Shown here piece by piece: positions 5,051-30,753 of a stretch of 64,000 nucleotides of DNA (position 1 is the stretch's first letter; every line of letters starts with the position of its first letter). Position numbers and translations under genes: made by a program. This DNA is from an uncultured Armatimonadetes bacterium (GTDB taxonomy: Bacteria; Armatimonadota; Hebobacteria; Hebobacterales; Hebobacteraceae), in NCBI GenBank assembly GCA_963716175.1, contig OY970296.1, positions 1,120,001-1,184,000 on the forward strand, written 5' to 3'. The notes beneath the pieces were generated by a model. It was not told the origin of the DNA. It saw only the letters and a list, made by a program, of their open reading frames with translations, and did not search any database.

Positions 5051-5591
5051 ACTCGGTACCGGAGAGCAAGTAGTCGTCGTCAAGGAGAAACGGAGTCCCT
5101 ACTGCTCCCGCAAAGTCCTCGAACTGCTGCCTCATGTCCGGGCTCATCTGCCCCAGCACGAAATCGAACTGGTCACGGGCCTCGTCTGTAACGCCGTGAG
5201 CAGCCATCTCTGCCGCTAGGTCGGATCCGTCGGCTACGGCAGCATCCGGCTCCGCAAGCGAGTCAACTAGCTCCACGCCCGCGTCCCACTCGACCGCGTA
5301 GGCAGACGCAAGCCAGGTCTGTAGCTCGGACAGGACCGGGCTGGCGTTAAGCGCGAGCACGTAGTAGGACAGGTACTGCCCCGGATCGTTGCTAAAGCCG
5401 TAGGTCTCTAGCTGCAGGGCTTCGCGAATGGTTCGCCCTGGGTGTCGTAAGCCGGTGAACAGTCTCTCGACTGGCCTGGGGTCGGAAGTCCATATGCCGT
5501 GCGATCGCTCCTCCTCAGACTCAATCTGTCTGAGAAGCCTGAGCACCTCGGCCCAGGTCTGAGTGCTGGTCTCCCCTGCTATCGCGTGCAC
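5031..5591 (-). CDS. Hypothetical acidic protein, putative antitoxin
   Basis: 186-aa ORF overlapping both neighbours, acidic C-terminus, directly upstream of PIN gene. Confidence 0.6.
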   Translation of the reverse strand: MHAIAGETSTQTWAEVLRLLRQIESEEERSHGIWTSDPRPVERLFTGLRHPGRTIREALQLETYGFSNDPGQYLSYYVLALNASPVLSELQTWLASAYAVEWDAGVELVDSLAEPDAAVADGSDLAAEMAAHGVTDEARDQFDFVLGQMSPDMRQQFEDFAGAVGTPFLLDDDYLLSGTEYGQGDP

Positions 5592-6235: not shown

Positions 6236-6466
6236 CGGAGCGTAGCGCTAGAACCTAGTTGGCTGCCAGGTCCGCGGCGTGACGGCTTCAGACATCACCT
6301 GGCCTTTTCCGCGGAAATCCACCTTCTTCCTTCCACCAACCGCAAGCGGATTCCAACAAACGCGCGTTCCGGGGTCGGGACCAGCAGCCGCCCCTGCCGC
6401 TCCTGTGCCATGCCGGACCCACCGCGCATCGACCGGAAACCCGGCGCGCCATCTCCAGGGGACTTG

Positions 6467-7240: not shown

Positions 7241-7244
7241 CGGC

Positions 7245-7925
7245 TCACCTCTTCCGCCCAATCGCGATCACGTAGTCAAGCTTTATGACATACCCAGTCT
7301 CCGCGCCGCTCGCGGTCGGGAACGAGGCCCAACCTTCCACCAGGAAGCTCTTGGTCAGCGGGCTGATGAAGCCGAGGCTCCACACCGAGTCGTGGCCGTC
7401 GTTCATCTGGATCCAGTCGCTGCGCAAGGTCAGCCGCTCGTTCACCGCGGCATCGGCTCCCAGGAACAGCGCGTGGTTGTCGGACTGGACGCTGTAGCCG
7501 AGATGTCCGTTCGCCTGCTTCCCGATAGGCACGGAGGCGACGGCGTAGGGAAAGCTGTCGCCGTGGAAGTCGCGGTTGCCCGAGACGTTCGCCACCCCCA
7601 GCGCCAGCCGCGCGCCCTTCTCCAGGGGTATCCGATATTTCGCCTGGAAGGTAGGCCCGCCTCCGGAGCCGGGGCCGGTGAGGCCGCCATCCATCCCTAC
7701 TTCCCAGTTCTGCCCCGGCCCGACCTTGAAGCCGGCGGCCCAGCTCGTCTCGCGGTCCGCACCGAAGTCGGTCCAGCTCTGCAGCACCAGGATGTCCTTG
7801 GGCACCACGTCAGCCGTCGGGATGTTGTTCAGGCCGGTGGGCGTGGCATTCGCCTGCCGGGGAGCCAGTGCAACGGCGGCTGCGAAGACGGCACCAAGCA
7901 GAACGCGGCGGGATGCTCTAAGCAC
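7245..7925 (-). CDS. Exported protein, probable outer-membrane beta-barrel
   Basis: Signal peptide ending ANA, TPTGLNNIPTADV N-terminus, alternating beta-strand pattern. Confidence 0.7.
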   Translation of the reverse strand: MLRASRRVLLGAVFAAAVALAPRQANATPTGLNNIPTADVVPKDILVLQSWTDFGADRETSWAAGFKVGPGQNWEVGMDGGLTGPGSGGGPTFQAKYRIPLEKGARLALGVANVSGNRDFHGDSFPYAVASVPIGKQANGHLGYSVQSDNHALFLGADAAVNERLTLRSDWIQMNDGHDSVWSLGFISPLTKSFLVEGWASFPTASGAETGYVIKLDYVIAIGRKR

Positions 7926-8781
7926 GGTCGAGAACCTCCTCTACGCCGACTTCCATCTCCACCCCCGGCCCGGGCAGGTAGCGGCGCACCAGAAGCTCGT
8001 AGACCCCGGCCCCGAACAGCGCCCCGATAATGGGGCTCAGGATATAGACGGTGAAGAAGCCTCCCCGCGGGCCCGGTATCGCCACCGATCCCCAGCCAAG
8101 CAGATACGAGACAAGACGTGGGCCGAAATCACGCGCCGGATTGAGGCCGGCCTGGGTAATCGGCGCCACGATGGAGATGATGATCGCCACGGTGAGGCCG
8201 ATGAACAGCGGGACCATGAAGCGCGGCTTGTCCGGATTGCGCTGCTCGGTCAGCGCGAAAACGAAACAGGCCAGGAACGCTGTGCCTATCGCCTCGCCGA
8301 ACCAGGCGGTCAGCAGCGACACCTGGCGGTAGGCCTCAGGGGTCGTGCCGATCATCGCCGGGTTGGGGAAGTATTCTCCGAAGACCATCGCCGATAATTC
8401 GCTCCCCGGCCCTCCGCGCACAAGGTGATGAGCCGCCTCGAAATGCGCGATCATGCCGTGATACAGTCCGTACAAGATCAGCGACCCGCAGAACGCGCCA
8501 GCCACCTGAGACACGACATACGGAGCGATCTTCGACTTGGGGAACCCGCGGAAGGCGGCCATGGCAATGGTAATCGCGGGATTGATGTGGGCGCCGCTCA
8601 CCGCGCCGACGGCATAGATCGCCAGCGCGATCCCCACCGCCCAGACCACCGCCACCTGCCAGAGGCCGGACTGAGCGCCGCTGAGCACAGCCGCGTTCAC
8701 CGCCCCGACCCCGAAGAACACGAGCATCAGGGTGCCCAGGAACTCGCTCAGGCACTCGCCCCAGAGAGTCGGTCGTCTCAT
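7918..8781 (-). CDS. MIP family channel (GlpF-like aquaglyceroporin)
   Basis: SGAHINPA and NPARDFGP signatures, six hydrophobic helices. Confidence 0.95.
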   Translation of the reverse strand: MRRPTLWGECLSEFLGTLMLVFFGVGAVNAAVLSGAQSGLWQVAVVWAVGIALAIYAVGAVSGAHINPAITIAMAAFRGFPKSKIAPYVVSQVAGAFCGSLILYGLYHGMIAHFEAAHHLVRGGPGSELSAMVFGEYFPNPAMIGTTPEAYRQVSLLTAWFGEAIGTAFLACFVFALTEQRNPDKPRFMVPLFIGLTVAIIISIVAPITQAGLNPARDFGPRLVSYLLGWGSVAIPGPRGGFFTVYILSPIIGALFGAGVYELLVRRYLPGPGVEMEVGVEEVLDRA

Positions 8782-8806
8782 GGCTCTCCCTCGCCCCTCT
8801 CTCCGG

Positions 8807-9202
8807 TCAGGCCGCCAGCAGCGCGTCCACCTGCTCTGCGATCCGCTGCGCTATCGCCTGCACCGCGGGATGCGCGGTGTCAATGTGGTTGTCGGGAAGT
8901 GACTCGAGGCTGATCTTCAGTTCCTTCGCCAGATCCGCGATGCGCACGGTCCGCGCCGCCTGCTTGCCCTTCTTGTCAACCAACCGCGTGGCACAGTCCA
9001 GCTCGCACGCCTCCACCGCCAGCACCGGGTACATGTTGATGAAATCCACGTCCTCCTGCACGTTGGCATTGAGCGCCGGGCCGCACCCCAGCACCGTGGT
9101 CTCGGGACGCAAGTCCTCGTGCACTACGTACAGCGCCTGCCGGCCCAGCACCGCCTCCTTGCGCAATCCCAGACACGGTTGCAGGCACACCTTATCGGCC
9201 AT
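8807..9202 (-). CDS. DGC-domain putative zinc-binding protein
   Basis: QPCLG, GC and VLAVEACELDCA Cys pattern, paralogous to 9341-9769. Confidence 0.7.
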   Translation of the reverse strand: MADKVCLQPCLGLRKEAVLGRQALYVVHEDLRPETTVLGCGPALNANVQEDVDFINMYPVLAVEACELDCATRLVDKKGKQAARTVRIADLAKELKISLESLPDNHIDTAHPAVQAIAQRIAEQVDALLAA

Positions 9203-9219
9203 CGCTCTCTCCTCGTTCT

Positions 9220-9274
9220 TGTGGGGCGGGCATGTCGGAGTTTACCCTGAGCGCAGTCGAAGGGCATGCCCGCC
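9220..9274 (+). repeat. REP-like element A (TGT[A/G]GGGCGGGCATG...CATGCCCGCC) with CCTGAGCGCAGTCGAAGG cargo
   Basis: 53/55 identical to the reverse complement of 59333-59387; partner half CCGCCCTACA at 9328-9337. Confidence 0.85.
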
Positions 9275-9340
9275 GGTCTGCTCCCAACGGCGGCGATGCT
9301 CCCTCAGGCCATGCCTCGGTCGCACATCCGCCCTACAGAA

Positions 9341-9769
9341 TCACAGCGTGCTCAGCATCTCGTCCGCAATGATGCGGTCAACCGCCTCCACCGCCTTCCC
9401 GGCCAGCGCCGCCACCAGCCTCTCCCCTTTGGCCGTCAGGCCCCGCCTCTTCTCCCCGGCCACCGGGATCTTCGCTTCCGCCGCCACGTCCGCCACATAC
9501 AGCCGCGCCGCCGGCGCCTTCCCCAGCTCATCACACATGAAGCTGGCGCAGTGCGGCCGGCACCCGTCAATCACCAGCACTGGATACTTGCTGAAAAGCG
9601 CCAGGTGCTCCGGGTCCTTCACCGCCAGCCGCCCGCTGCTCAGCAGCACCACCTGGTCCGGCCGCATCTGCTGGATGCGATAGCCAGCCAGCCTCACCAC
9701 CGTGGAGACCAGCCGCCCGATCCCGTTGCACGGCAACACTGCCACCTTGAAATCGTGCTCCTCTGCCAT
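9341..9769 (-). CDS. DGC-domain putative zinc-binding protein
   Basis: LPCNG and VLVIDGCRPHCA (DGC motif). Confidence 0.8.
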   Translation of the reverse strand: MAEEHDFKVAVLPCNGIGRLVSTVVRLAGYRIQQMRPDQVVLLSSGRLAVKDPEHLALFSKYPVLVIDGCRPHCASFMCDELGKAPAARLYVADVAAEAKIPVAGEKRRGLTAKGERLVAALAGKAVEAVDRIIADEMLSTL

Positions 9770-9867
9770 GACACCCCTTCTCCGGCCTGGCTTCCCTCAA
9801 CCGCCTTCAGCTTAGCGTGCGGCAAGACCAATTCTGAGATTGACGCATGAAATTTATGTGAATGCCC

Positions 9868-9897
9868 TTGACAGGAATTTCTTCCATGTGCGACAGT
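9868..9897 (+). promoter_or_regulatory. Putative sigma70 promoter of MerR gene
   Basis: TTGACA at 9868-9873; weak -10 GACAGT after 18 nt; AT-rich near-palindrome CATGAAATTTATG just upstream. Confidence 0.45.
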
Positions 9898-9919
9898 GAT
9901 GGCATCGGAGGTATGTCAG

Positions 9920-10600
9920 ATGGAAGACCAGCGCGACCGAGCCTTGTTCGCCATTGGCCTGGCAGCCCAGCAGGTGGGCCTGAGCGCCCGCACCCTGCGC
10001 ATCTACGAACAGGAGGGCCTCCTCCGCCCCGCCCGCAAGGGCGATCAGCGCCTCTACAGCGACCAGGACCTGATCTGGATCCGCTGCATCTCCGAGCTGA
10101 TCCACGGCCACAGCCTCACCACTGCCGCCATCCGCAGGCTGCTCGACCTTATCCCCTGCTGGGAGATCAAGCACTGCCCCGAGGAGGTGGCCGCCCGCTG
10201 CGCTCCCCACCTCCACATCCCCGGCATGGCGGTGCGCGCCCCGGGGGCCCCCGCTGGCTCAGCCGCGGCCGAAGACCGCGCCGGCGGCGCCCCAGAGCAA
10301 GACCAGGGAAAGGCCGTGGAGGTGAAGATCTTCTACGGCATCAAGGAGTTCGGGGTCATCTTCCCCTGCCTGAAGTGCATCCAGGCCGAGCGCATCGCCC
10401 GCCGCATCGCCCAGCGCCACCCTGGCCGGGTGGTGGTGCGCAAGTACGACGTGCTCTCCCCGGAGGCCGACCGCCACGGGGTGATGATGACCCCCACCGT
10501 GGTGGTGAACGGGGAAGTGGTGGCCAGTGGCAGGGGCCTCAGCGCCAACCGCCTGGAGCAGTTGCTCGAGCGGCACCTGAAACCTGACCAGGAAGAGTGA
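9920..10600 (+). CDS. MerR-family regulator with Cys-rich segment and C-terminal thioredoxin-like domain
   Basis: MerR HTH (IGLAAQQVGLSARTLRIYEQEGLL...RLYS), PCWEIKHCP...C, CLKC and GVMMTPTVVVNGEVV; GGAGG RBS. Confidence 0.85.
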   Translation: MEDQRDRALFAIGLAAQQVGLSARTLRIYEQEGLLRPARKGDQRLYSDQDLIWIRCISELIHGHSLTTAAIRRLLDLIPCWEIKHCPEEVAARCAPHLHIPGMAVRAPGAPAGSAAAEDRAGGAPEQDQGKAVEVKIFYGIKEFGVIFPCLKCIQAERIARRIAQRHPGRVVVRKYDVLSPEADRHGVMMTPTVVVNGEVVASGRGLSANRLEQLLERHLKPDQEE

Positions 10601-18543: not shown

Positions 18544-20789
18544 GTGAGCATCATCCGCCGTGAGACCCGGGTCAAAGGTACCGTCCAGGGGGTCGGTTTC
18601 CGGCCCTTTGTCTACCGGCTCGCCACCTCCCTGGGCCTGGCGGGGTCAGTCCGCAACACGCCCCGCGGGGTGGTGATCGAGATCGAGGGCGAGAACGAGA
18701 CCGTCGCCGCCTTCCTGCAGCAGCTGGTCAGCTCCGCCCCTCCCCTTTCCCGCATTTCGTCGCTCGAGACCAGCGAGCTTCCCCCTATCGGCCGCAGGGG
18801 GTTCGAGATCATCGAGAGTGCCCCCGGGGCCAGGCCCACCGCCCTCATCCCACCCGATGTCGCGCTCTGTGACGACTGCGCCCGCGAGATCGCCGACGCC
18901 GACGACCGCCGCTTCGGCTATGCCTTCACCAACTGCACCAACTGCGGGCCGCGCTTCAGCATCGTGCGCGGCATCCCCTATGACCGGCCTCAGACCACCA
19001 TGGCGGCCTTCGAGATGTGTCGGGCCTGCGCCGCCGAATATGCTGACCCCGCCGACCGGCGTTTTCACGCCGAGCCCATCGCCTGCCCGGTCTGCGGCCC
19101 CTCCTTGTTCCGCGATGGCCAGCCCTCGCCGGACGCGTTAGACCAGGTGGCGCGGTGGCTGACCGAGGGCAAGATCGTGGCCATCAAAGGCCTTGGTGGC
19201 TATCATCTCGCCTGCGATGCGCGCAACGCGCAGGCGGTGGAGGAGCTGCGCGCTCGCAAGGGCCGGGGCCAGAAGCCCTTCGCCATCATGGTGCGTGATC
19301 TCGCCGAGGCCCGCCGCGTGGCCGACCTCTCCCCGCGCGCCGCCCAACTGCTCACCTCACCGGAGAGCCCCATCGTCATCCTGCCGGGGCGGCCCGACAG
19401 CGGCCTCGCGCCAGGCCTCGCCCCCCGGCAGCGCACCGTCGGACTGATGCTGCCCTACACCCCGCTGCACCGGCTGCTGTTCTCGCAGGCCCCCCGGCCC
19501 TGGTGATGACCAGCGGCAACCTCGCCGAGGAGCCCATCGCGCACCGGGATGAGGAGGCGAAACGAAAGCTCGGCCCCATCGCCGATCATATCCTCTCCCA
19601 CGACCGCGAGATCGCGGTGCCCTGCGATGATTCCGTGGTGCGATGCCTCGGCGACCTGGCGATCCCGGTGCGCCGGGCGCGGGGATACGTGCCCCGCGCC
19701 ATCGCCGTTGGGGTCGAAGGCCCGCCCGTGCTGGCGGTGGGCGCGCACCACAAGAACACCTTCTGTCTGCTGCGCGAGGGGGAGGCGATCCTCAGCCAGC
19801 ATATCGGCGACCTCGACTCCCTGGAGGTGCTGGACTACTTCGGCGTCGCCATCGAGCACTTCGCTCGCCTCTTCCAGGCGAGGCCGGAGATCGTCGCCCA
19901 CGACCTGCACCCCGGCTATCTATCCACTCACTACGCGCGGTCGCTGGAGGGCGTGCGCCTGGTTCCGGTGCAGCATCATCACGCGCACGTGGTGAGCGTG
20001 ATGGCGGAGCTGGGCCTGGCGGGCCCGGTGATCGGCGTCGCCTATGATGGCACAGGCTACGGCCCCGATGGCACGCTCTGGGGTGGCGAGATCCTGATCG
20101 CTGACCGGCGCGAGTTCCGCCGCGCTGGCTACTTGCGCCCTGTGCCTCTGCCCGGCGGCGAAGCCGCCATCACCCATCCCCGGCGCATGGCCTTGAGCTA
20201 TCTCATCAGCGCTTTCGGCGACGAGGCCATCGCCGGGGCGCTCCGCCTCATGCCCGGCTTCGATGAGACCGAGGCGCGAGTGGTAGCGCGGCAGGTCGAG
20301 CGCAACCTCAACTCACCACTCACCTCCAGCATGGGCCGGCTCTTCGACGCGGTCGGCGCACTCCTCGGCGCCACCCCTGTTGCCACCTATGAGGGCCAGC
20401 CCGCGATGGAGCTGGAGGCCATCGCCGACCAGTTCCAGGGGCCCGCCACTCCGTATCCATATGCGATCTCAGATGGTATCATTGACCCGCGCCCGCTCAT
20501 CCAGGCTATCGCGGCTGACCTCGAGCGCCACGCCGATCACCCTGAGGTCGCGGCGCGCTTCCACGAGACCGTGGCCGCCTTCACCGTCGAGATCTGCCAG
20601 CGCCTCCACGCCGAAGGCGGTCCGCCTGATGTCGTGCTCTGCGGCGGCGTGATGCAGAACGCGCGCCTGCTGTCGCGGTTGGTGCAGGGCTTGACCGACG
20701 CCGGGCTGAGGCCCCACCTCCATCGCGAAGTGCCGCCCAACGATGGAGGACTCAGTCTGGGACAGGCCGTGGTGGGCTTGCAGGCGTAG
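18544..20789 (+). CDS. hypF: Carbamoyltransferase HypF; one frameshift near 19490, probably a sequencing error
   Basis: Acylphosphatase VQGVGFRPFVY, CTNCGPR zinc fingers, KGLGGYHLAC, MTSGN, QHHHAH, PPNDGGLSLGQ; adding one C to the run at ~19490 joins the two ORFs. Confidence 0.95.
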
Positions 20790-20837
20790 GCCGGTTCGGG
20801 TAAACTCATAGGTGGGAGCAGACTTGGGGAAGCAGAT

Positions 20838-21788
20838 ATGAGTATTGTTGTTTGCTGCAACCTGCCCGATGGTGTCATAATGGGCGCCGACTCGTACGTC
20901 ACGGTGTCAGGCATCAACGTTGACGAAAGCGGCGCTCAGCGACCCCAATTCCTCAAGTTCTTCGACAGCGCCCAGAAGATCTTCGAGCTGGGTACGATGC
21001 CGGGGCTTGCTTCTGGAGTGCCAGAGGAGGCACGGTGCGGAAGGCGGCAGCCGGCGGGCGGTGCCGCAGTTGCCGTAGGCGCGCTGGGGATGTATCAACT
21101 GGGTGATCGCACGATTGGCAGCCACTTGGAAGAGCTTGATGCCAAAGAGGGAACGGAATTGCTGCATCGGGGCAGCGGGGATACCGGCGCAAAGGGTAGC
21201 CTTAAGCCGGTCTGCACCGGGATCTGGGAGTTCTTCTCGAAGCGCTACACAGTCGCGCTGAGTCGGCACTTTGAGCAGGCCGGGCGCAAGCTCGACGACG
21301 TGCCGCCCGGCGACAGGCCGCCTCTCGGTTTCGTGATTGCTGGCTACGCTGCCGGGGAGGTGCTGGGAGAAGTGTGGTTGCTGGATGTGAGAACCCCGCC
21401 CGAGCAAGGCGGCATCGTGCAGGTCCGTGAGAAGGGCGCGTTCGGTGCAACCTGGGCAGGAGTGGCAGGGCCGATAAGTCGTTTCATCAAGGGATACGAC
21501 AACGAGATGCTGCCTGATAAGCTCCGACAGCTGCTCAATGAGAGACTTGGAGAGAAAGGCGAAGAGATCTGGTCTGATGTGGAAAAGCTGCTCACTCGCA
21601 TGGAGTACCGGATACCCTATGCTGCAATGCCTCTAGAAGAAGGCATTGAGCATGTCAGGTACCTAGTAGGCCTGGCCATCAGCTTCGCAAAGTACGCCGT
21701 CGGCCCCCCGCTGTGTGGTGGGGAAGTAAGACTAGCGGCCATAACGAGAAGGAGGGGCTTCCGCTGGATCGGCCGTGAGCCGATGTAA
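20838..21788 (+). CDS. Proteasome-beta-like Ntn-hydrolase homolog (hypothetical)
   Basis: M-S1-IVVC...DGVIMGADS...QKIF and C-terminal CGGEVRLAAIT..GFRW match the Thr/Ser1-Asp17-Lys33 layout by eye. Confidence 0.65.
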   Translation: MSIVVCCNLPDGVIMGADSYVTVSGINVDESGAQRPQFLKFFDSAQKIFELGTMPGLASGVPEEARCGRRQPAGGAAVAVGALGMYQLGDRTIGSHLEELDAKEGTELLHRGSGDTGAKGSLKPVCTGIWEFFSKRYTVALSRHFEQAGRKLDDVPPGDRPPLGFVIAGYAAGEVLGEVWLLDVRTPPEQGGIVQVREKGAFGATWAGVAGPISRFIKGYDNEMLPDKLRQLLNERLGEKGEEIWSDVEKLLTRMEYRIPYAAMPLEEGIEHVRYLVGLAISFAKYAVGPPLCGGEVRLAAITRRRGFRWIGREPM

Positions 21789-21806
21789 GCAACAGGAGGC
21801 GCGACT

Positions 21807-22025
21807 ATGGCGATGGATAGAGGTTTTGGCCTTGGGAGGACGGCAGATTGGGGACTTGAGTTCGAGCGTTGGGTCGCGCAGAGCACCGTGTCCTCCGCGG
21901 GTGCTGTGGCCGAGTGGTACCCCTTTGAGGTCGGCGGTCTGCCTGCCGAGCCTAGCCTGGAGGAGCGCGTGGATAGCTGGCTCAGACGGCACGAGGAAGC
22001 TATGAACCGCCTTGCCGATCTCTGA
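21807..22025 (+). CDS. Putative antitoxin for Doc
   Basis: 72 aa, AGGAGG RBS, C-terminal LRRHEEAMNRLA resembling Doc-neutralising helices; overlaps doc. Confidence 0.65.
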   Translation: MAMDRGFGLGRTADWGLEFERWVAQSTVSSAGAVAEWYPFEVGGLPAEPSLEERVDSWLRRHEEAMNRLADL

Positions 22026-22455
22026 GCCGTCGGTGCGCTATCTGTCGGCCGACGAGATCTGGAGAGTTCATCTTCGTGTAGCTCGCCATGCGGAGCAGCT
22101 CGGAAAGCCCTTTCTGGCAGCGGTAAGAGAACCCGAGTTGCTGGCGTCAGCTGCAGGTCAGCCCCGCCAGAGCTTTGGCGGGGCTGACCTTTACAGGACT
22201 GTATTCGACAAGGCAGCAGCGCTGGCAAGAGGCATCATATGCGGCCATATGTTTGTGGACGGCAACAAGCGAACAGGCCTTGCCGCGGTAAGGCTGTTTC
22301 TGGAGTACAACGGATGGGACTTCGACCTGCCTGACGAGGAATTGGAGGCCCTCGCGCTGGTGATCGCTGGAGCGCGCGAGCAAGGCCAGGAACCCATCGC
22401 GATAACGGAGATATCTGAGCGACTGCGTAGCGCGTCGAGAAGTACAGATCGCTGA
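22012..22455 (+). CDS. doc: Death-on-curing (Fic/Doc) family toxin
   Basis: YLS..EI..H, LLASA...P, HMFVDGNKRTG Doc motif; start could be GTG 22033. Confidence 0.9.
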   Translation: MPISEPSVRYLSADEIWRVHLRVARHAEQLGKPFLAAVREPELLASAAGQPRQSFGGADLYRTVFDKAAALARGIICGHMFVDGNKRTGLAAVRLFLEYNGWDFDLPDEELEALALVIAGAREQGQEPIAITEISERLRSASRSTDR

Positions 22456-22527
22456 ATGGCACAGGTCGCTCATGAACACGAGAGAGAAGGCACACACTCG
22501 GGTGCGGTCGCTCAGGAGTCAAGCCTG

Positions 22528-22767
22528 ATGTGTCTTGCCATACCCATGCGCGTCGTATCCATCTCCGGCCCCACCGCACAGGTGGAAGAGGGCGGGGTGC
22601 GCCGCGAGGTGCGGGTTGACCTGATCGAGCGGGTCGCGGTCGGCGACTATGTGATCGTGCACGCCGGGGTGGCGATAGAGCGCCTCGATCCCGAGGAGGC
22701 CGAGGAGACGCTGCACCTGTTCGCGGAGATGTTTGGTGGAAAGCCTGAAGGAACTCCGCAGCTCTGA
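22528..22767 (+). CDS. hypC: Hydrogenase maturation chaperone HypC
   Basis: MCLAIP N-terminus, GDYVIVHAG. Confidence 0.95.
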   Translation: MCLAIPMRVVSISGPTAQVEEGGVRREVRVDLIERVAVGDYVIVHAGVAIERLDPEEAEETLHLFAEMFGGKPEGTPQL

Positions 22768-23857
22768 GCTGCTCCGCTGGCTGGCGGAGCAGCTTCGCGC
22801 CATGGCGGCCCCGCCGGCCACCTTGATGGAGGTGTGCGGCACTCACACCGTGGCCATCGCGCGCCACGGCCTGCGCCAGGCCCTGCCCCCGGGGGTGCGG
22901 CTAATCTCGGGGCCCGGCTGCCCGGTGTGCGTGACCCCGCAGCATCAGATTGACCACTTCCTCGCGCTGGGCGGACTCGACGGCGTCACCCTTACCACCT
23001 TCGGGGACATGATGCGGGTGCCGGGAAGCGAGCACAGCCTGGAGCAGGCCCGCGCCGCGGGCGCTGATGTGCGCGTCGTCTACTCTCCCATGGACGCGGT
23101 CACCGCGGCCGCGGAGAGACCGGACCGGCAGGTGGTGTTCTTCGGCATCGGCTTCGAGACCACCGCCCCCGCGGTGGCGCTGGCCATCCTCGAGGCCCAG
23201 AAGCAAGAGCTAAGGAACTTCTCCGTGCTCTGCGCCCACAAGCTCATCCCGCCCGCCATGCTCGCCCTGCTGGATTCACAGATTCGCGTGGACGGGTTCA
23301 TCTGCCCCGGGCATGTCAGCGCCATCATCGGCAGCAATGCCTATCGCCCGGTTGCAGAGCGAGGAAAGCCTTGCGTGGTCGCCGGATTCGAGGCCGCCGA
23401 CATCCTGCGCGCGGTGCAGATGCTGCTGCGGCAGCTCGCCGAAGGCCGCGCCGAGGTCGAGAGCGAGTACACGCGGGCAGTCCGCCCGGAGGGCAACCGG
23501 CGCGCCCAGGTCCTGCTCGCTCGCGTCTTCCGCATCACCGACGCGCGCTGGCGCGGCCTGGGCGAGATCCCGGCCAGCGGTCTCGCGATCAGCGAGGAGT
23601 TCGCGGAGTTCGACGCCGGGCGGCGTTTCCAGGTGGAGCTGCCGCCCACCAGGGAGCCGGCCGCATGCCGCTGCGGCGACGTGCTGCGCGGCCTGATTGA
23701 CCCGCCGGAGTGCCCGCTCTTCGGCGAGACCTGCACCCCGGCCACGCCCGTCGGCGCCTGCATGGTCTCCAGCGAGGGCGCCTGCCAGGCCCATTATCGG
23801 TATAGATCCGTTGGGCAGGGGCTTGCCCCTGCCACTGACGGAGGTGGCGAGCCATGA
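22733..23857 (+). CDS. hypD: Hydrogenase maturation protein HypD
   Basis: MEVCGTHT, GPGCPVC, GFETTAP, PGHVS, CMVSSEGAC. Confidence 0.97.
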   Translation: MVESLKELRSSELLRWLAEQLRAMAAPPATLMEVCGTHTVAIARHGLRQALPPGVRLISGPGCPVCVTPQHQIDHFLALGGLDGVTLTTFGDMMRVPGSEHSLEQARAAGADVRVVYSPMDAVTAAAERPDRQVVFFGIGFETTAPAVALAILEAQKQELRNFSVLCAHKLIPPAMLALLDSQIRVDGFICPGHVSAIIGSNAYRPVAERGKPCVVAGFEAADILRAVQMLLRQLAEGRAEVESEYTRAVRPEGNRRAQVLLARVFRITDARWRGLGEIPASGLAISEEFAEFDAGRRFQVELPPTREPAACRCGDVLRGLIDPPECPLFGETCTPATPVGACMVSSEGACQAHYRYRSVGQGLAPATDGGGEP

Positions 23858-24906
23858 CCGACGACCGCGTCCTGCTGGCTCACGGCGACGGCGGCGAGAT
23901 GATGGCCGACCTCATCGCCAGGATCTTCGTCTCCCGGCTCGGCGCCGGAGACCCACCGGGCGATGACGCCGCCCGGGTTGGTAGCGCAGGCTCCCCCGCC
24001 GGCCTTGTGGCGAGCTCCCAGCCTGCGGCCGGTTCCCATCTCGCCTTCACCACCGATGCCTTTGTTGTGGACCCGATCTTCTTCCCCGGCGGCGACATCG
24101 GCCGGCTCGCCGTCTGCGGCACCGTGAACGATCTCGCCACCGCGGGAGCGCGCCCGCTCGCCCTCAGCGCCAGCTTCATCCTGGAGGAAGGCCTTCTCAT
24201 CACCGACCTCGAGCGCATCGTGGACTCGATGGCGAGCGCGGCTCAGGAGGCCGGCGTCCGCGTGATCACGGGCGACACCAAAGTGGTGCCCCGCGGCAAG
24301 GCCGATCGCGTCTACATCTCCACCTCCGGAGTGGGCGAAGTGCCCCCGGGCATCTCCCTCTCCGGCGCCAATGCCCGGCCCGGCGACATCGTCATCGTCA
24401 CCGGCCCGCTGGGGGATCACGGCCTGGCCGTGCTCTCCCGGAGAGAGGGGTTGCAGTCCGAATCAGAGATCGTGAGCGATTGCGCGCCCCTGGCCGCAAT
24501 GGTGCAGGACCTGCTTGCCGCCGCGCCCGGCGTGCACGCGCTGCGCGACCCGACCCGCGGCGGCCTCGCCGCCGCTCTCAACGAGATCGCGCGCCAGTCT
24601 CAGGTCGAGATCGAGATCGAGGAGTCTGCGGTCCCAGTGCGAGCCGGGGTGGCGGTGGCCTGCGAGCTGCTCGGACTGGACCCGCTCTACGCCGCGAACG
24701 AAGGCAAGATGATCGTGATCGTCGCCCCCGATCAGGCCGAGGCCGCGCTTGCCGCCCTCCGCGCCCACCCCTACGGCAAGGAGGCCGCCGTCATGGGCCG
24801 CGTCGCGACCGCCTCGCGGAAACCGCGCGTCCTGCTCCGCACCGCCCTCGGCACCCACCGCATCCTGGATAGGCATGTGGGCGAACAGATGCCGCGGATT
24901 TGCTGA
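23854..24906 (+). CDS. hypE: Hydrogenase maturation protein HypE
   Basis: LAHGDGG, FTTD, GTVNDL, RDPTRGG, ANEG, C-terminal PRIC. Confidence 0.97.
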   Translation: MTDDRVLLAHGDGGEMMADLIARIFVSRLGAGDPPGDDAARVGSAGSPAGLVASSQPAAGSHLAFTTDAFVVDPIFFPGGDIGRLAVCGTVNDLATAGARPLALSASFILEEGLLITDLERIVDSMASAAQEAGVRVITGDTKVVPRGKADRVYISTSGVGEVPPGISLSGANARPGDIVIVTGPLGDHGLAVLSRREGLQSESEIVSDCAPLAAMVQDLLAAAPGVHALRDPTRGGLAAALNEIARQSQVEIEIEESAVPVRAGVAVACELLGLDPLYAANEGKMIVIVAPDQAEAALAALRAHPYGKEAAVMGRVATASRKPRVLLRTALGTHRILDRHVGEQMPRIC

Positions 24907-24972
24907 TCCGTCGTGCTCCTCCTTGGCAGTCGTTGCTTTCTTCTTGCCCGGCGTGCGCGTTCTCGTCCCGTG

Positions 24973-25001
24973 TTGCCCGCAGCGGCAGAATGCGGTATAC
25001 T
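24973..25001 (+). promoter_or_regulatory. sigma70-type promoter
   Basis: TTGCCC-N17-TATACT 45 nt upstream of ATG 25046. Confidence 0.6.
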
Positions 25002-25045
25002 CGGTGTCGGGCCAAACATCTGTTACTGTTCTCACAGGGGCCAGT

Positions 25046-26500
25046 ATGAGACTGCTGCACTGGCTGACGCGCCATAGGACAATCGGGCAGCAAGACCGAG
25101 GGCCCGCAGTCACTGCTGAGGCATCAGACGCGCCTGGAAAGGGCGCGACGCCACGCGGCCAGCCGCCCTTGTTCAGGGTGCTGGTGTACGGCTACGACGA
25201 CCTCAGGCTGATCGCGACAGAACAACTGCCCGACGGCGTACTCATGCACTACGACCCCCGCGATTCCCGCTTCGATGATTTTGACTGCATAGTGCTCCCC
25301 TACCGCGCATTCCTGTCCAGAGTCGAGGTGGTCCGCCGCTACATGGAGCCCACACGCCGCGACGTTTACGTCTGGGAACCTGAGAGAGACCGCCGCGACA
25401 AAGAGATAGAGGCCCTACTTCGCAAGGGCGGAGTTGTGTGTTGGCTGGTGGACGAGGTGCCCCAAATCGCGCGTCGTGACAAGTACGACGATTTCGGCGC
25501 GTGGGTCAGGGCTAACGCCTCTGAAAACATCCGCGCGTATCCTGGGTTTGTCTCCCTCCACTACCGGGCCGGCTATGCGCTCAGTGATCCCTGGCCCTCA
25601 GCATTTTCCGGGCTGCAGTGTCGCCGTTCCGAGTTCAGGAAGTGGGTCGCGTCCCACGCGAGCACTCGCCACGACCTGGTACTCGTTGAGCCAGACAGGG
25701 CCCATAGCACCCAGGTCATCTGCACCTTCCCCAACGATGACCCGGCAGGTTTGGCGATCCCGGTAGACGCTGGCCTGGTACTCATATTGCCCTATCTGCC
25801 AGCGAACCGTCCTCGCACTGAAGTAGCGTCGGCCATGCACGAGCTGGCGCGAGCGCTTCGCCGTTACCGCGACGCTGTGATCGCGGCGCCTCCTCCTTGG
25901 CTTGACGAGTTCTGCTTCACACAAGAGCGCACCATCCGAGATGAACTGGCGCGCCTGGACCAGCTAAAGGCCGAATCCAGCGCGAAACTAGCTCCCTATG
26001 AGCAGCAGAAGAGACTCCTTTACCTCGGAGATGATCAGCTCACAGAGGACCTCATTGCCTGCCTCGAAGCGCGTGGCCTGAAGACCCAAAGAGAGGAGCG
26101 CTTTGTCGAGGACTTCTTCCTGCTGGACGATGCCCGCACGCCTGTCGCGATCTGCGAGGTCAAGGGTCTGGACGCCAATCTCAGGGGGGAGCACGTCGCA
26201 CAACTCAATCTCCACCGCACTGAGCACGACCTCGACCAGGAGTTCCTGGGGCTTCTTTTCGCGAACACCTTCCGGAGAGCGCCGACCTTTGCCGAGAAGG
26301 ATCATCAGATTGAACCGAGGACACGCAAACAAGCAGCGCACCTCCACATCACTGTCGTCAGAACACTCGACCTGCTCCGCCTCTTCGACCTGATGGACAC
26401 GGGCCAGCTCGACGCCTCAGGCCTGCTTGCGGTTCTAGCCGAGAAGCCCGGCTGGCTCCGGGTTGACCCCGACGGCGTGTGTCAAGTATTGCAGGAGTAG
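25046..26500 (+). CDS. Hypothetical protein with C-terminal PD-(D/E)xK-like domain
   Basis: 484 aa, short coiled coil followed by EDFFL...AICEVKG...QL. Confidence 0.65.
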   Translation: MRLLHWLTRHRTIGQQDRGPAVTAEASDAPGKGATPRGQPPLFRVLVYGYDDLRLIATEQLPDGVLMHYDPRDSRFDDFDCIVLPYRAFLSRVEVVRRYMEPTRRDVYVWEPERDRRDKEIEALLRKGGVVCWLVDEVPQIARRDKYDDFGAWVRANASENIRAYPGFVSLHYRAGYALSDPWPSAFSGLQCRRSEFRKWVASHASTRHDLVLVEPDRAHSTQVICTFPNDDPAGLAIPVDAGLVLILPYLPANRPRTEVASAMHELARALRRYRDAVIAAPPPWLDEFCFTQERTIRDELARLDQLKAESSAKLAPYEQQKRLLYLGDDQLTEDLIACLEARGLKTQREERFVEDFFLLDDARTPVAICEVKGLDANLRGEHVAQLNLHRTEHDLDQEFLGLLFANTFRRAPTFAEKDHQIEPRTRKQAAHLHITVVRTLDLLRLFDLMDTGQLDASGLLAVLAEKPGWLRVDPDGVCQVLQE

Positions 26501-26754: not shown

Positions 26755-28795
26755 TCACAACCCCCAGAACCCATAGGTCCTCGTCCCCCAGATCATGGTC
26801 ACGAAGGTCCAGCTCAGCCCGATCACGGTCTCTCCCAGGATCAAACCGTAGAAGAACGGCAGGGCCTGCCGGTAGAGCCGCAGCCCGCCATAGCGAAGCA
26901 CCGTGCCCTTGGCGATCATCGCCAGCACCATGGGCATCCAGATCAGGTGGATGGACCAGCTCGCGGCCAGGGCGTAGGCCACCGGGTGCAGGGGCCACCC
27001 CACGATGGCGCTTCGCGCCGCCCCCAGCAGTAAGGTGATGGCGAACCCGGCGGCCATGGCGAGCAGAGGCACGTAGTCCGCGTGGGTCGGGTTCTGGACC
27101 CAGGATTGCAGGGTGCGCGCCACCTCATCGCCCTGCCAATCTCCCCCGCTCCACTTGGAAGCCACCCCCCACTGATAGGCATAGTGCAGCCACACCCAGA
27201 ACCCGGCCAGCGTCCCCAGCAGGCTCGCCAGCGTGATGGCGACGACCACCGGCCTGCTGGGAGACCCGGTCCGCGCCGCCAATTGCACCCCCTCGATGGT
27301 GTGCCCGATGGGATGGCCCCGGAAGGCGCGCTGCAGCCACCAATAGATGCTGAACATGGTCAGGTCCTGATGGCTCACGTTCATCGTTCCAGATACCGAG
27401 ACGATGATGCGGCCCGGGCCGGCGTGGTGGAAGTCGTGCACCGGCGAGCCGAACTCCGCCCGCACCCGCGCCACCGCCAGCGATAGCAGGTAGTAGACCA
27501 CGAAGAAGAAGATGGCGATCCGCAGCGACATCCCTCCATAGACGCTGAAGGCCACCAGCAGCGCGATCCCCACCACTGCACCGATCGCGGCCAGCCGGTA
27601 GCTCATCCCCTCCTGGGCATCGCTGACTTCACTCCGCCGGCCCACGATCCGCCGCCACACCGCGGCGAAGTAGCTCCTCCCCACAAAGATCGGCCCCAGC
27701 GCGATCGCCATGTACCCGCCGAACATCTGGTGATTGGCATAGGGAAACGTGGTCTCCACTTCCCCGGTCCAGCCCTGGTTGATCCCGAGCGCGGCCGAGA
27801 GGACATACATCGCCTTCCACCAGAAGAAGAAGACCACGCACGAGAACAGGATGTCCAGCGGCACCAGGAACGCGATCCCGATCACCGCCGGGTAGAAGGT
27901 CACCGGCAGCCAGCCAATCCCGCGCCAGGGCAAATCGGGAAGGAGATTGGCGATATCGTTCGCGCCCCAGTTGTCCACCACTGGCGCAATCGAGAGATAG
28001 GGCAGGGCCGGGTAGATGTAGTGCAGCCCATTGATCAGATCCACCGACCCCGCCGCCACGAACCCGATCCAGAGCAGCGCGCTGCGCCAGAGCTGGGTGT
28101 CCGGCCGGGTGATCTCCAGCGGCAACTGGATGATGGGGAAAGTCAGCCGCTCCCGGTCCGCCCACTGCGCCCGCACCAGCACCGAGAGGCAGGTCATGAC
28201 GAAGATCAGCACCACCATGAACCCGGTCCACCACAGCACTGGCGGCAGCCAGGCCCGCAGCACGAAACTCTGGTACATGCTGGAGGAGCCGTTGTAGTAA
28301 TGGTACAGCGCCTGGGGGTCGCTCACCACCAGCCAGGGCGGTGAATTCGCCCACATCTCCTCCCAGCGGTTCGCCGGGGTGGCGAACCAGAAGGGGTGAG
28401 TGATGGTGGGCACCAGCACCTGCATGTTGTCATAGGCCACCGTCGAGCTGCCGATGGTGAGCATGGCGTAGATGATGATGAACTCGGCCTGGTTGAGCGC
28501 CCAGGCCGGCCGCAGCCTGCGCGCCACGGCATTGGCCAGCGCCAGGAAGAAGACGATGAAGATCACGTTGAAGAAAAGCGAGAATGGTGGTGGGGAGCAC
28601 GCCCGCGCCGGTGATGTTCTCCATGTGGAGCACCCACAGCGCGTTCAGCGGCAGCAGCACCAGCCCCAGCGCAAATCCGCGGCCGACTCGGCTCGTGCTT
28701 CGTAGCGAAGGCCGGTTCGCCTGCCGAAGCTGGGCTTCGGAGCCCGCGAAGGCAGGAGCTTCGCTACTTCGCAGAGTAGCAGTGGCTCTCTTCAT
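26755..28795 (-). CDS. DUF6785/DUF6784-type multi-pass membrane protein, paralog 1; frameshift near 28585
   Basis: QWADRERLTFPIIQLPL, RVRAEFG, WPLHPVAY, LRYGGLRLYR; N-terminal part lies in ORF 28430-28795. Confidence 0.85.
28692..28781 (-). repeat. Palindromic element inserted in frame in the N-terminus of paralog 1
   Basis: Both ends match the reverse complement of 60579-60624; explains the 30-aa excess over paralog 2. Confidence 0.8.
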
Positions 28796-28803
28796 CCTGC
28801 TTC

Positions 28804-30753
28804 CTACAGCCCCCAGAAGCTATAGGTGGGCACGCCCCAGATCAGCCCCACCAGGGGCCAGCCGCACCCGATCACGCTCTCGCCCAGAATCAGGCCGTAG
28901 AACAGGGGCAGCGCCTGCCGGTAGAGCCGGAGGCCCCCATAGCGCAGCACCAGCGACTTCACGATCCACGCAATCAGCATCGGCATCCACACGATGTGGA
29001 TGGACCAGCTCGCGGACAGCGCGTAGGCCACCGGGTGCAGAGGCCACCCCATGAAGGTGGTCCGCGCCAGCCCCAGCAGCATGGTGATGGCGAAGCCGAC
29101 TCCGATCCCGATCAAGGCCAGGGGATTGGGCTGGGTGGGGTTCTGCACCCAGCTCTGCAGGTTCTCCACCATCTCCACCCCGCGCCAGTCCCCGCCCCCG
29201 AACTTCGAGGACACCCCCAGGACATAGGCGTAGTGCAGCCAGCCCCAGAACACCGAGAGCGTCCCCGCCAGCGTGGCCAACACCATCGCCACCACCAGCG
29301 CCCGGCTGGAGGAGCGGCTGCGGTGCGCCATCTGCACTCCCTCGATGGTGATCCCGATGGGGTGAGCGCGATAGGCGCGGTTGAACCACCACAGCAGGCT
29401 GAGCACCACCAGGTCCTGCTGCCTGATGCTGGCCGTGCCCGCCACATAGGTGATGGTCTGTCCCGGGCCCGCCAGGTGGAAGTCGTGCACCGGAGAGCCG
29501 AACTCCGCTCGCACCCGCGCCACCGCCAGCGACACCAGGTAGTACATCACGAAAAAGGGCGCCGCCAGCCGCAGCGACAGCCGGGCGTGCATCGTGAACG
29601 CCACCAGCAGCGCGATTCCCACCACCGCCCCGACCGCCGCCACGCGATAGCTCAACCCTTCTTGTCTGTCATCCGCCTCTGAGCGTCGGCCCAGCACCCG
29701 CAGCCACACCTCCCGGAAGTAGCGCCGCCCCATCAGCAGGGGGGCGATGGCGATGGCGAGATAGCCGCCGAACATCTGCTCGTTGGCGTACGGAAACACG
29801 CTCTTCGCCTGCTCCGACCACCCCTGGCTCACTCCCACCGCGGTGGCGATCACGAACATCGCCTTCCACCAGAAGAAGAAGAAGACCGAGGAGAACAGCA
29901 GATCCAGGGGCACCAGGAAGGCCATCCCGATCACCGCCGGGTAGAACGTCACCGGAAGCCAGCCGATCCCGCTCCAGGGCGGGTCCGGCAGGTACTTCAT
30001 GAGATCATTCGACCCCCAGGTGTCCATGGTGGGCGCGATCGAGAGATAGGGGATGGCGGGGTAGATGTAGTGCAGACCATTGACCAGATCTATGCCCCCC
30101 GCGGCCGCGAACCCGACCCAGAGCAGAGGATTGCGCCACAGTGGCGTGCGCGGCTCGCTCACCGCCAGGGGAAGCTGGATGATGGGGAAGGTGAGGCGCT
30201 CCCGGTCCGCCCATTGGGCGCGCACCAGCACTGAGAGGCAGATCATCACGAACACCAGCACCACGATGAACCCGGTCCACCACAGCACCGGGGCCAACCA
30301 GGCCTGGATCACCGGCCACTGGTACAGGGTGGAGGAGCCATTGTAGTAGCCGTAGAGGATGCTCCGGTCCCAGACCACCAGCCAGCGGGGCGCGCTCTCC
30401 AGCAGTTGGTCGTAGCGGTTCTCGGGGTTGGCGAACCAGAAGCCATGGGTCATCACCGGGATCAGCACCTGCATCATGTCCAGGCCCGCCAGCGCGGTGC
30501 TGATGGCCAGCATGCTGTAGACGATGATCAGCTCGCCCTGGGTCAGCGCCCACCGGGGCCGCAGCCTCCCCAGCGCCAGGTTTCCCAGGGTGAGGAAGAA
30601 CAGCACGAAGACCACATTGAAGAACAGGGAGATGGTGGAGGGAATGGGCCCGTAGGCGCCGATGTGCTCCATGTACAGCACCCACAGCGCGTTCGGCGGC
30701 AGCAAGATCAAGCCGACCAGAAAACCGCGCCAGGTGGGAGCACCCCGCTTCAT
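28804..30753 (-). CDS. DUF6785/DUF6784-type multi-pass membrane protein, paralog 2
   Basis: 649 aa, co-linear with and closely similar to paralog 1. Confidence 0.88.
   Translation of the reverse strand: MKRGAPTWRGFLVGLILLPPNALWVLYMEHIGAYGPIPSTISLFFNVVFVLFFLTLGNLALGRLRPRWALTQGELIIVYSMLAISTALAGLDMMQVLIPVMTHGFWFANPENRYDQLLESAPRWLVVWDRSILYGYYNGSSTLYQWPVIQAWLAPVLWWTGFIVVLVFVMICLSVLVRAQWADRERLTFPIIQLPLAVSEPRTPLWRNPLLWVGFAAAGGIDLVNGLHYIYPAIPYLSIAPTMDTWGSNDLMKYLPDPPWSGIGWLPVTFYPAVIGMAFLVPLDLLFSSVFFFFWWKAMFVIATAVGVSQGWSEQAKSVFPYANEQMFGGYLAIAIAPLLMGRRYFREVWLRVLGRRSEADDRQEGLSYRVAAVGAVVGIALLVAFTMHARLSLRLAAPFFVMYYLVSLAVARVRAEFGSPVHDFHLAGPGQTITYVAGTASIRQQDLVVLSLLWWFNRAYRAHPIGITIEGVQMAHRSRSSSRALVVAMVLATLAGTLSVFWGWLHYAYVLGVSSKFGGGDWRGVEMVENLQSWVQNPTQPNPLALIGIGVGFAITMLLGLARTTFMGWPLHPVAYALSASWSIHIVWMPMLIAWIVKSLVLRYGGLRLYRQALPLFYGLILGESVIGCGWPLVGLIWGVPTYSFWGL

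Follow-up and report, generated by a model that had tools for sequence, protein, structure and literature searches.

A mobile cassette within a bacterial hyp operon joins a predicted proteasome-type hydrolase to a small partner protein and a Doc toxin

In a stretch of 64,000 nucleotides from an uncultured Armatimonadetes bacterium (contig OY970296.1, positions 1,120,001 to 1,184,000; hereafter the window), the hydrogenase-maturation (hyp) operon is interrupted between hypF and hypC by a cassette of three genes. In order, these encode a 316-residue protein predicted to be an N-terminal nucleophile (Ntn) hydrolase, a 72-residue partner that we presume to be an antitoxin, and the toxin Doc (open reading frames ORF1, ORF2 and ORF3). 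The cassette is a polymorphic mobile insertion of 1.74 kb at the 3' end of hypF, and its three genes probably make up one functional module. The hydrolase belongs to a large family that is without a Pfam, NCBIfam or PADLOC model, and comparisons of gene order across this family show that different toxins have been attached repeatedly to a core of hydrolase and small partner. We know of no function for bacterial relatives of the proteasome beyond HslV and the actinobacterial proteasome. An orphan family of 3275 clusters hence gains a first likely and testable role from its dedicated small partner and its repeated wiring to classical toxins. The reading that we favour, though at slightly less than even confidence, is that of a toxin-antitoxin module with three components, the hydrolase of which would act on the small antitoxin.

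The 316-residue protein itself finds no match in Pfam, NCBIfam, PADLOC-DB 2.0 or PHROG, and it does not reach the gathering score of PF00227. A profile built from 9 homologues recovered the yeast proteasome beta1 subunit (E 5.6e-4) over three collinear stretches; in this match residues 4-28 of the query lie on residues 3-27 of the mature chain, so that Ser2 falls on Thr1, and a G-A-D-S motif of the query is aligned with G-A-D-S of beta1. A first model based on 9 sequences (predicted local distance difference test score, pLDDT, 76) was matched in Foldseek by at least 500 structures at E <= 0.001, headed by 20S beta subunits and Anbu. The AlphaFold2 (AF2) model computed from 122 sequences reached a pLDDT of 92.3 and a predicted template-modelling score (pTM) of 0.90. 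When this model was compared with solved structures using VIA-align, all 50 among the matches listed were Anbu or 20S beta subunits (Z 17.2-19.1, 187-203 residues aligned), and in nearly all of these 50 residue 2 of the model was placed on residue 1 of the matched chain. The best of them is Anbu (5nyw_L; Z 19.1, 198 residues aligned with a root-mean-square deviation of 2.5 A, model residues 2..313 paired with chain residues 1..211). Among predicted viral structures the top match carries the name 'Proteasome beta type-2 subunit' and comes from a phage (9.7e-8). As modelled, the 316-residue protein is thus a proteasome-beta/Anbu-like Ntn hydrolase with the four-layer alpha-beta-beta-alpha fold. 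An earlier note on this DNA, made from the sequence alone, had proposed a proteasome-type Ntn fold from the motifs M-S-IVVC, DG...ADS, QKIF and GG...IT..GF.W; all of these are present (as the M-S-I-V-V-C start, DG..GADS, QKIF and CGG..IT..GFRW), and the structure search agrees with the proposal. The model has long helices at residues 93-111 and 123-147, three helices at 211-218, 225-237 and 240-254, and a last long helix at 266-286, with the extra helices of ORF1 lying within 225-254. A loop of about 20 residues with low pLDDT (residues ~55-75; nucleotides 21000-21065) is absent from the 8 closest homologues.

The presumed nucleophile is Ser2, exposed after removal of Met1, and it would act together with Asp18, Lys47 and Gly84. 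Methionine aminopeptidase prefers small second residues, and this is the basis for the assumed removal of Met1. Among 122 aligned relatives, position 2 is occupied by Thr in 74 and by Ser in 48, and Asp18, Lys47 and Gly84 are conserved in 120, 119 and 120, respectively. Asp18 and Lys47 would be the equivalents of Asp17 and Lys33 of the proteasome, with the equivalence of the lysine judged from its place in the strand after the hairpin.

The extent of the family depends on the manner of searching: a word-indexed protein search yielded 9 homologues only, and an exhaustive profile search yielded 3275 cluster representatives at E <= 0.001, a number that falls to 1226 when the threshold is set to 1e-10 and to 236 when it is set to 1e-30. 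Most members are 260-300 residues long, are matched from residue 1 and start with M-[ST]. PF00227 is matched weakly by 3 of the 122 aligned members (best E 0.0018), NCBIfam by none of the 122, and PADLOC by one of the 122 relatives at chance level (2.9e-4). Those members that carry a name are all called 'hypothetical protein', and those in the Atlas fall into hypothetical clusters, one with PF00227 on 15% of its members. The distribution is patchy, with the family present in 6 of 41 genomes of relatives at E <= 0.001 and in 16 of 401 genomes of the window's phylum at E <= 1e-10. A longer form of about 420 residues is also found in phage contigs, and there it matches phrog_5990 and usually has an ORF of 58-68 residues after it. 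Outside the window, the genome from which it derives encodes a second, distant member of 422 residues (G000:C1:1373907-1375112, locus L034; here and below, G and L numbers denote genomes and loci), which starts M-T-S-E-V-A-V-L, is preceded by an 82-residue ORF and adjoins ORFs that by eye resemble an insertion sequence.

The three genes of the cassette are all on the forward strand (Table 1) and are co-oriented, tightly spaced and lower in GC than their surroundings, as had been described in the earlier note. ORF1 starts 48 nt after the hypF stop and is separated by 18 nt from ORF2, upstream of which lies AGGAGG. ORF2 and ORF3 overlap by 14 nt, in the gene order of type II toxin-antitoxin systems, with the small antitoxin gene upstream of the toxin gene and overlapping it, and the stop of Doc lies 72 nt ahead of the hypC ATG at 22528. 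GC content is 0.575-0.65 over 20800-22600, compared with 0.675-0.74 in the flanks, and at third codon positions (GC3) it is 0.68 in ORF1 and 0.64 in ORF3, compared with 0.85-0.88 in the hyp genes. A scan of 20500-22800 for promoters and terminators found no promoter-like site; terminator-like sites numbered 2, compared with a mean of 1.5 in shuffled sequence. Of the 23 sequencing runs listed for this DNA, none was of RNA.

The insertion could be observed directly in contigs from four public metagenome runs, which were placed on positions 20300-23000. One contig from run X2 (record 14; 460 nt, depth 4, 10 other letters) represents the empty site, in which 20775 is joined to 22514 with 8 other letters at the join and 1738 nt are skipped. 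The skipped stretch extends from a point 14 nt ahead of the hypF stop to one 14 nt ahead of the hypC ATG, with the last codons of hypF inside the segment. The filled left junction, running from hypF into ORF1, is covered by a second contig of X2 (record 10, 20741-20955) and by one of run X1 (record 3, 20364-20849), which rules out a sequencing chimera; no contig among the pieces listed bridges the right junction at 22467-22499. Since filled and empty contigs were both found, both alleles occur in nature, and the cassette represents a mobile element that has landed inside an operon. The arrangement in relatives, whose hypF-hypC adjacency was the check suggested for an insertion inside the hyp operon, conforms with this picture: in five of 11 hypF loci of relatives (L038, L042, L043, L046, L047) hypC follows hypF at 0-55 nt, with the stop and start codons sharing a base in three of these five, in three others (L039, L044, L045) it lies 0.2-1 kb away, and in the remaining three hypF loci (L037 at a contig end, L040, L041) no hypC was seen. 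In two genomes of the same family, G005 and G011, the hydrolase gene lies away from hypF (in G011 at ~2.82 Mb, compared with 3.07 Mb for hypF); the G005 locus L048 consists of the same ORFs as L002. A search of 20600-22700 for flanking repeats or a target-site duplication found short, chance-like repeats only. In other loci the neighbours of the homologues include phage portal or terminase genes, and ORFs read by eye suggest restriction-modification genes beside them at L001 and L005. At L031 the hydrolase gene is split by a 300-residue transposase-like ORF, and a 531-residue transposase-like ORF occupies the toxin position after a small ORF of the RelE class; judged from these ORFs, L031 appears to be a decayed copy of the module.

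The third gene is readily identified as Doc, in agreement with the earlier reading of its HMFVDGNKRT motif. It matches PF02661 (3.4e-14; 53.9 bits, cut-off 24) and TIGR01550 (3.3e-13, above cut-off), as well as the Doc-family structure 9vzc_A (1.6e-14) and P1 Doc (3k33, 7.2e-4) in the Protein Data Bank (PDB), and its H-M-F-V-D-G-N-K-R-T agrees with the Doc/Fic motif, H-x-F-x-(D/N)-(A/G)-N-K-R. It has an M-P-x-(S/T)-E/D N-terminus in common with its homologues. P1 Doc phosphorylates EF-Tu and thereby halts translation. Doc is the only protein of the cassette that matches PADLOC candidate families (PDC-S23, PDC-M59B and PDC-S04).

The 72-residue protein gave no match in Pfam, NCBIfam, PADLOC or PHROGs, hence no Phd/YefM, AbrB or Xre domain was detected in it. 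Its C-terminal stretch is conserved among Doc-linked homologues only, 9 sequences of which all have E64, L69 and A70; the N-terminal half varies among homologues. We presume it to be an antitoxin because its gene lies directly upstream of Doc and overlaps it, and because its C-terminus is conserved in the Doc-linked homologues. Of the two features that the earlier note had assigned to this protein, the lack of a DNA-binding domain still stands, and the Doc-antitoxin-like C-terminal helix found no counterpart in any family or solved Phd. A comparison of small proteins linked to other toxins is instructive in this regard. Those of L030 and L022 have their first ~43 residues in common (BLASTP E 2e-12) and differ in their C-termini; the former precedes a phrog_4575-like gene and the latter a PIN gene. 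The C-termini of the small proteins are specific to the toxin class. A G-[ST] motif that seemed by eye to be shared by small proteins across classes is unproven, as the profiles of the classes fail to find each other.

The genomic contexts of the hydrolase were investigated in three separate tallies. The first consists of 32 loci of the window's own clade, which were collected with patterns drawn from the hydrolase only (5 from genomes and 27 from metagenomes). The hydrolase is followed here by a small ORF of ~60-130 residues, and a gene of a toxin class comes next in 25 of the 32, confirming the linkage of homologues to toxin-antitoxin genes that had been suggested as a check. These toxin-class genes are: 1) Doc in nine loci (L002, L004, L005, L006, L009, L010, L021, L029, L032). 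2) PIN in five (L014, L017, L018, L019, L022), with PF01850 matched at 4.5-4.7e-8 in L014 and L022 and the other three called by eye. 3) RelE/ParE in five (L015, L020, L024, L025, L026), with PF05016 scoring above cut-off for L024 and L026 and only weakly for L015 and L020, and the call in L025 made by eye. 4) A phrog_4575-like protein of 141-204 residues in six (L001, L008, L011, L012, L016, L030), supported by PHROG matches of 1.6e-7 to 2.9e-4 for L001, L008 and L030 and by no Pfam match. In the remaining loci the contig ends within 360 nt (L007, L013, L023), insertion sequences have broken the locus (L031), or no toxin was seen (L003, L027, L028). These counts include near-copies, namely L011 and L012 of L001, L017-L019 of L014, and L032 of L021. 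The function of phrog_4575 is unknown, and its relatives here share conserved Q-G-D-[IV]-F and S-Q-[ST]-C-D-I-E motifs; as it occupies the toxin position after hydrolase and small ORF, we regard it as a candidate new toxin.

It might be argued that the window merely holds an ordinary two-gene Doc toxin-antitoxin pair that travels beside an unrelated prophage gene. Toxin-antitoxin pairs and accessory genes indeed crowd common prophage hot spots, and in three of the 32 loci the hydrolase has no toxin nearby. However, this gene order with its close spacing is found again in at least four phyla as labelled in the records (Armatimonadota, Chloroflexota, Bacillota and Acidobacteriota) and with four types of toxin, the small proteins lack the DNA-binding domain of ordinary Doc antitoxins, and the entire 1.74 kb moved as a single piece. 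We therefore consider such a chance association extremely unlikely.

In the second tally, which covers the 16 hydrolase-positive genomes of the phylum, Doc was recognized by its motif in six (the window's own, G005, G306, G336, G192 and G249) and PIN in two (L057 at 2.2e-8, and L049 at 23.0 bits, which is below the cut-off of 23.6). L061 has a 166-residue ORF, and L058, L059 and L062 have other ORFs without an assigned family. Three genomes of one genus contain a 245-residue form of the hydrolase, and at L050 and L051 this adjoins an ORF read as aldolase-like, with no toxin; one further genome has a 424-residue form (L065). The third tally comprises 50 loci from viral contigs, obtained with another clade of the hydrolase family as query. 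Among those with the ~280-residue form, an ORF of 45-72 residues abuts the hydrolase stop in 19 of 26 and Doc is found in one of the 26 (L092); among those with the ~420-residue form, an ORF of 58-68 residues abuts in six of the eight examined. Neighbouring genes include those for a small terminase subunit, portal proteins and a transglycosylase. At L092, the gene after the hydrolase, small ORF and Doc (L092:5096-6274) encodes a Schlafen AlbA_2-domain protein (1.1e-11). As the small ORF accompanies most hydrolases and a toxin some of them, the conserved core is the hydrolase with its small partner, and the toxin an optional third gene. The protease-antitoxin-toxin switch envisaged in the earlier note accordingly survives as a linkage of three genes and not as a unit with the toxin constantly in its core, since the toxin is often absent in phage contigs.

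The succession of toxins was further examined on a maximum-likelihood tree of the hydrolase with 44 rows. This tree excluded L064 on account of its very long branch; the near-duplicates L011, L012, L018, L019, L032 and L048; the truncated or broken L007, L013, L016, L023, L029, L030 and L031; the viral L068, L069, L074, L075, L078, L079, L081, L084, L085 and L087-L089; the ~420-residue forms L093-L116; and L050-L055, L065 and L066. Its well-supported branches force at least four label changes for Doc, at least three for PIN and at least three for RelE/ParE, so that the type of toxin has changed at least three to four times on this tree.

The removal of the antitoxin is a central question of the toxin-antitoxin field, and we put at just under an even chance the proposition that the hydrolase of this cassette cleaves the small antitoxin. 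In the favoured scheme the C-terminal helix of the small protein would neutralise Doc, as its position and class-specific conservation suggest, and its N-terminal part would sit in the hydrolase's substrate groove, where it would be cut. Through such cleavage the cassette would bring its own means of keeping the antitoxin short-lived, or of destroying it on cue. The freed Doc would then phosphorylate EF-Tu and stop translation, and in consequence either the host would be addicted to the element or infection would be aborted; the direction of control, the trigger and the biological role of the module are likewise what we infer. A cassette-borne hydrolase, if confirmed in this role, would have no dependence on the host Lon or Clp proteases, and this independence would explain how the module could function after transfer between phyla. 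A precedent for the assumed division of labour in the small protein is that a C-terminal fragment of Phd alone neutralises Doc, with the other antitoxin domains being accessories (PMC10440598).

A predicted complex of the hydrolase with ORF2 is consistent with this scheme to a limited degree. It scored 0.46 (runs 0.50, 0.43 and 0.46), compared with 0.00 for the best of 3 controls, with a partner pLDDT of at least 46 and at least 81% of the contacts common to the runs. Of 80 solved complexes, 58 attained the mark applied to this score, as did 2 of 110 mismatched pairs; with a score of 0.60 or less, it was attained by only 7 of the 80 and by both of the passing mismatches.

Several observations weigh against the favoured scheme. 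Binding between the hydrolase and ORF2 is thus predicted weakly, and the fold of the partner in the complex is uncertain. A profile of 9 homologues of ORF2 retrieved from the PDB no Phd or other antitoxin, the best match being a DUF507 protein at E 0.16. Profile hidden Markov models (HMMs) were built from the first 40-48 residues of the small proteins in trios linked to PIN/phrog_4575 (L014, L022, L030), to Doc and to RelE, and were run against the 4243 ORFs of all loci; each found its own members only, with the best other match at E 0.2-3. The small ORFs are themselves mechanical ORF calls and hence predicted genes. At position 171 the window's hydrolase has Ala, in contrast to the Ser of 96 of 122 relatives, and this serine may be the equivalent of proteasome Ser129. 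Finally, the usual phage form is the hydrolase with a small ORF and without a toxin, and a protease dedicated solely to an antitoxin leaves this unexplained.

The toxin-less phage pairs give room for the hydrolase to act as an effector, a stabiliser or a peptide-processing enzyme, and they provide the chief case for these rival readings. A broader view, which we regard as rather doubtful, is that the hydrolase and small partner constitute an unrecognised and widespread conflict module of phages and prophages, in which the hydrolase would be a switch, possibly set off by an infecting phage; its cut in the partner would free any toxin (Doc, PIN, RelE/ParE or a phrog_4575-like protein) held by the tail of the latter. 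If this view is true, abortive-infection or addiction systems gated by a protease would form a new class, and one of the orphan families of proteasome homologues would have its first biological role. It is unlikely, in our estimate, that the hydrolase is instead a toxic effector protease directed against the cell or phage, with the small protein as its inhibitor, the N-terminal part of which would restrain the hydrolase and the C-terminal helix Doc. On this account the toxin-less combinations of hydrolase and small ORF in the phage loci would be self-sufficient two-gene toxin-antitoxin modules. The conserved catalytic positions are in line with an effector, and the weak predicted binding suits an inhibitor as well as a substrate. 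Nevertheless, we know of no proteasome-type Ntn hydrolase that serves as a toxin, the swapping of toxins on a constant core resembles a platform serving the third gene, and the last two genes, which overlap, are in the usual antitoxin-toxin arrangement. The effector account could also draw on the insertions in the hydrolase, which are of a kind argued to hinder ring assembly (PMC8665760) and might leave the active site exposed, so that an inhibitor would be needed.

Another family of three-gene systems offers a different role for the hydrolase-like protein. In the toxin-antitoxin-chaperone (TAC) systems, composed of HigBA or MqsRA and a SecB-like chaperone, an extra segment of the antitoxin is recognised by a dedicated third protein (PMC11980606), and these systems act in phage defence, sensing phage proteins and aborting infection (PMC11980606; bioRxiv 10.1101/2024.02.24.581848). 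By analogy, the hydrolase-like protein could shield the antitoxin as SecB-type chaperones do until a cue displaces it, whereupon host proteases would destroy the antitoxin and Doc would be freed, with no need for catalysis. Three genes, an antitoxin with an extra segment that does not neutralise, and a weak predicted contact would all fit such an arrangement. However, the third protein of TAC protects its antitoxin as a chaperone, whereas here the active site of a hydrolase is conserved and its gene is the first of the operon; the 316-residue protein has no SecB match in Pfam and a proteasome-like fold. A pure binding protein would not be expected to retain the nucleophile, Asp and Lys in 119-122 of 122 relatives, and the catalytically dead alpha subunits of the proteasome have lost these positions (PMC8665760). 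We consider a chaperone-like role distinctly unlikely.

The commonest form of the system, a hydrolase with a dedicated small ORF, also brings to mind connectase, a monomeric, sequence-specific ligase of the same superfamily (PMC8665760; PMC7980362). By this reasoning the hydrolase would mature or join peptides, the small ORF would encode its specific substrate with the product as the purpose of the pair, and the toxins would be later add-ons. We hold this to be very unlikely: between clades the small ORFs show little of the conservation that a fixed recognition motif would have, the loci read revealed no further genes for tailoring or export beside the pairs, and the model has a low-confidence loop rather than a structured helical insert at the site of the signature insertion of connectase.

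Returning to the three-component module that we favour, its hydrolase can be placed among previously described proteasome homologues. Anbu is the closest solved fold (Z 18.0-19.1, root-mean-square deviation 2.5-2.7 A), and the nucleophile would lie right after Met1 as it does in Anbu and HslV. At 316 residues the protein is longer by ~110 than a proteasome beta subunit of ~200 residues, and the chains of Anbu have 231-241 residues. The neighbours of Anbu are ATP-grasp and transglutaminase-like genes, in contrast to the hyp genes and Doc found here, and no HslU lies beside the ORF1 gene. Its size and neighbour genes thus rule out Anbu or HslV proper. Another parallel comes from the 2021 survey of Fuchs, Alva and Lupas (PMC8665760), which described 22 new proteasome homologues including the PMI group ('proteasome homologue with multiple insertions'), the largest family of which, PMI-4, is also found in phages. 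The family studied here resembles this group in having equivalents of Thr/Ser1, Asp17 and Lys33, no propeptide and no AAA+ partner, and in being widespread in bacteria and present in phages. By our own assignment of the helices, the model may also contain the additional elements that the survey describes behind H1/H2 and between H3 and H4. The survey states that it found no genomic context suggestive of function for the new homologues; the link to a small partner ORF and toxins is new here.

The closest parallel in organization is provided by the COG2856 (ImmA/IrrE Zn-protease)-Xre-RelE/PIN systems, which were predicted by Makarova, Wolf and Koonin in 2009 as three-component systems (PMC2701414). 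The two share a dedicated protease and an antitoxin-like protein in one operon, interchangeable RelE or PIN toxins, a frequent occurrence in phages and prophages, and a proposed logic whereby the protease cleaves the antitoxin or repressor. Nonetheless, COG2856 belongs to the metzincins, carries an HEXXH motif and in many cases is part of a fusion with the antitoxin, whereas the protein here is a separate proteasome-type Ntn hydrolase; likewise, the antitoxin of those systems is an Xre helix-turn-helix repressor, whereas the small protein here has no detected DNA-binding domain. Neither ORF1 nor ORF2 matches a peptidase or helix-turn-helix family in Pfam or NCBIfam. In that study Doc is listed with AbrB, Xre and YhfG partners and not with COG2856 (PMC2701414).

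The last two genes resemble Phd-Doc of phage P1 in that they include a Fic-fold Doc with the H-x-F-x-D-G-N-K-R motif and an antitoxin gene directly upstream that overlaps it. In P1, turnover of the antitoxin depends on host ClpXP, whereas in the present case a protease-like gene is part of the cassette. A short C-terminal segment of the antitoxin suffices in P1 (PMC10440598), and the 72-residue protein shows no Phd/YefM or AbrB match. The words 'proteasome', 'Ntn' and 'peptidase' do not occur in the text of Ernits et al. 2023 (PMC10440598), and we found no description of a layout of hydrolase, small protein and toxin in a literature search that did not extend to subscription journals and bioRxiv supplements. 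The earlier statement that no described system has this layout can therefore be retained for the layout itself and has to be relinquished for the general idea, since a three-component system with a dedicated protease had been predicted in the form of COG2856-Xre. What is new is the class of protease, which to our knowledge was never before tied to such systems.

Table 1. Positions in the window of the cassette, the inserted segment and the flanking hyp genes
Feature	Position	Strand	Evidence or remark
ORF1, proteasome-beta/Anbu-like Ntn hydrolase (predicted), 316 aa	20838..21788	+	ORF listing, fold model, alignment
ORF2, small partner, presumed antitoxin/adaptor, 72 aa	21807..22025	+	ORF listing, homologue alignment
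ORF3, Doc (Fic-fold) toxin, 147 aa, TTG start	22012..22455	+	PF02661, TIGR01550, PDB match
Inserted segment holding the three-gene cassette, 1738 nt	20776..22513	.	Empty-site contig, low GC/GC3, hypF-hypC abutment in relatives
hypF, upstream flank, two ORFs (18544-19506 and 19503-20789)	18544..20789	+	HypF domains; frameshift in C run
hypC, downstream flank, starts M-C-L-A-I-P like relatives	22528..22767	+	PF01455, residues 25-89 of longer ORF 22456-22767
hypD	22733..23857		Hydrogenase-maturation flank
hypE	23854..24906		Hydrogenase-maturation flank

Certain other features of the window deserve mention. The reading frame of hypF shifts at 19488-19506, in a C run just ahead of a conserved V-M-T-S-G-N, and relatives have a single frame of 750-840 residues; the split may be an assembly indel or a true frameshift. 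RNA polymerase beta-subunit domains are similarly distributed over two ORFs, 38040-39659 and 40424-41749, that lie ~760 nt apart, which could reflect more assembly indels or an insertion in rpoB. Should the rpoB region prove to contain assembly indels, the hypF split would be an artefact too. Right after hypE lies a 583-residue ORF (24749-26500) with a GC3 of 0.72 and no match in Pfam, NCBIfam or PADLOC, which is possibly another foreign gene, located where the hyp operon ends. A block at 3057-10587 consists of ORFs of low GC3 (0.46-0.72, with the exception of 8877-9683 at 0.84), mostly without a Pfam match, and includes a 208-residue PIN-domain protein on the minus strand (4454-5080); it may be another mobile or defence island. 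Finally, the minus strand encodes a tandem pair of paralogous membrane proteins, with DUF6785 and DUF6784 domains, at 26755-28566 and 28804-30753.

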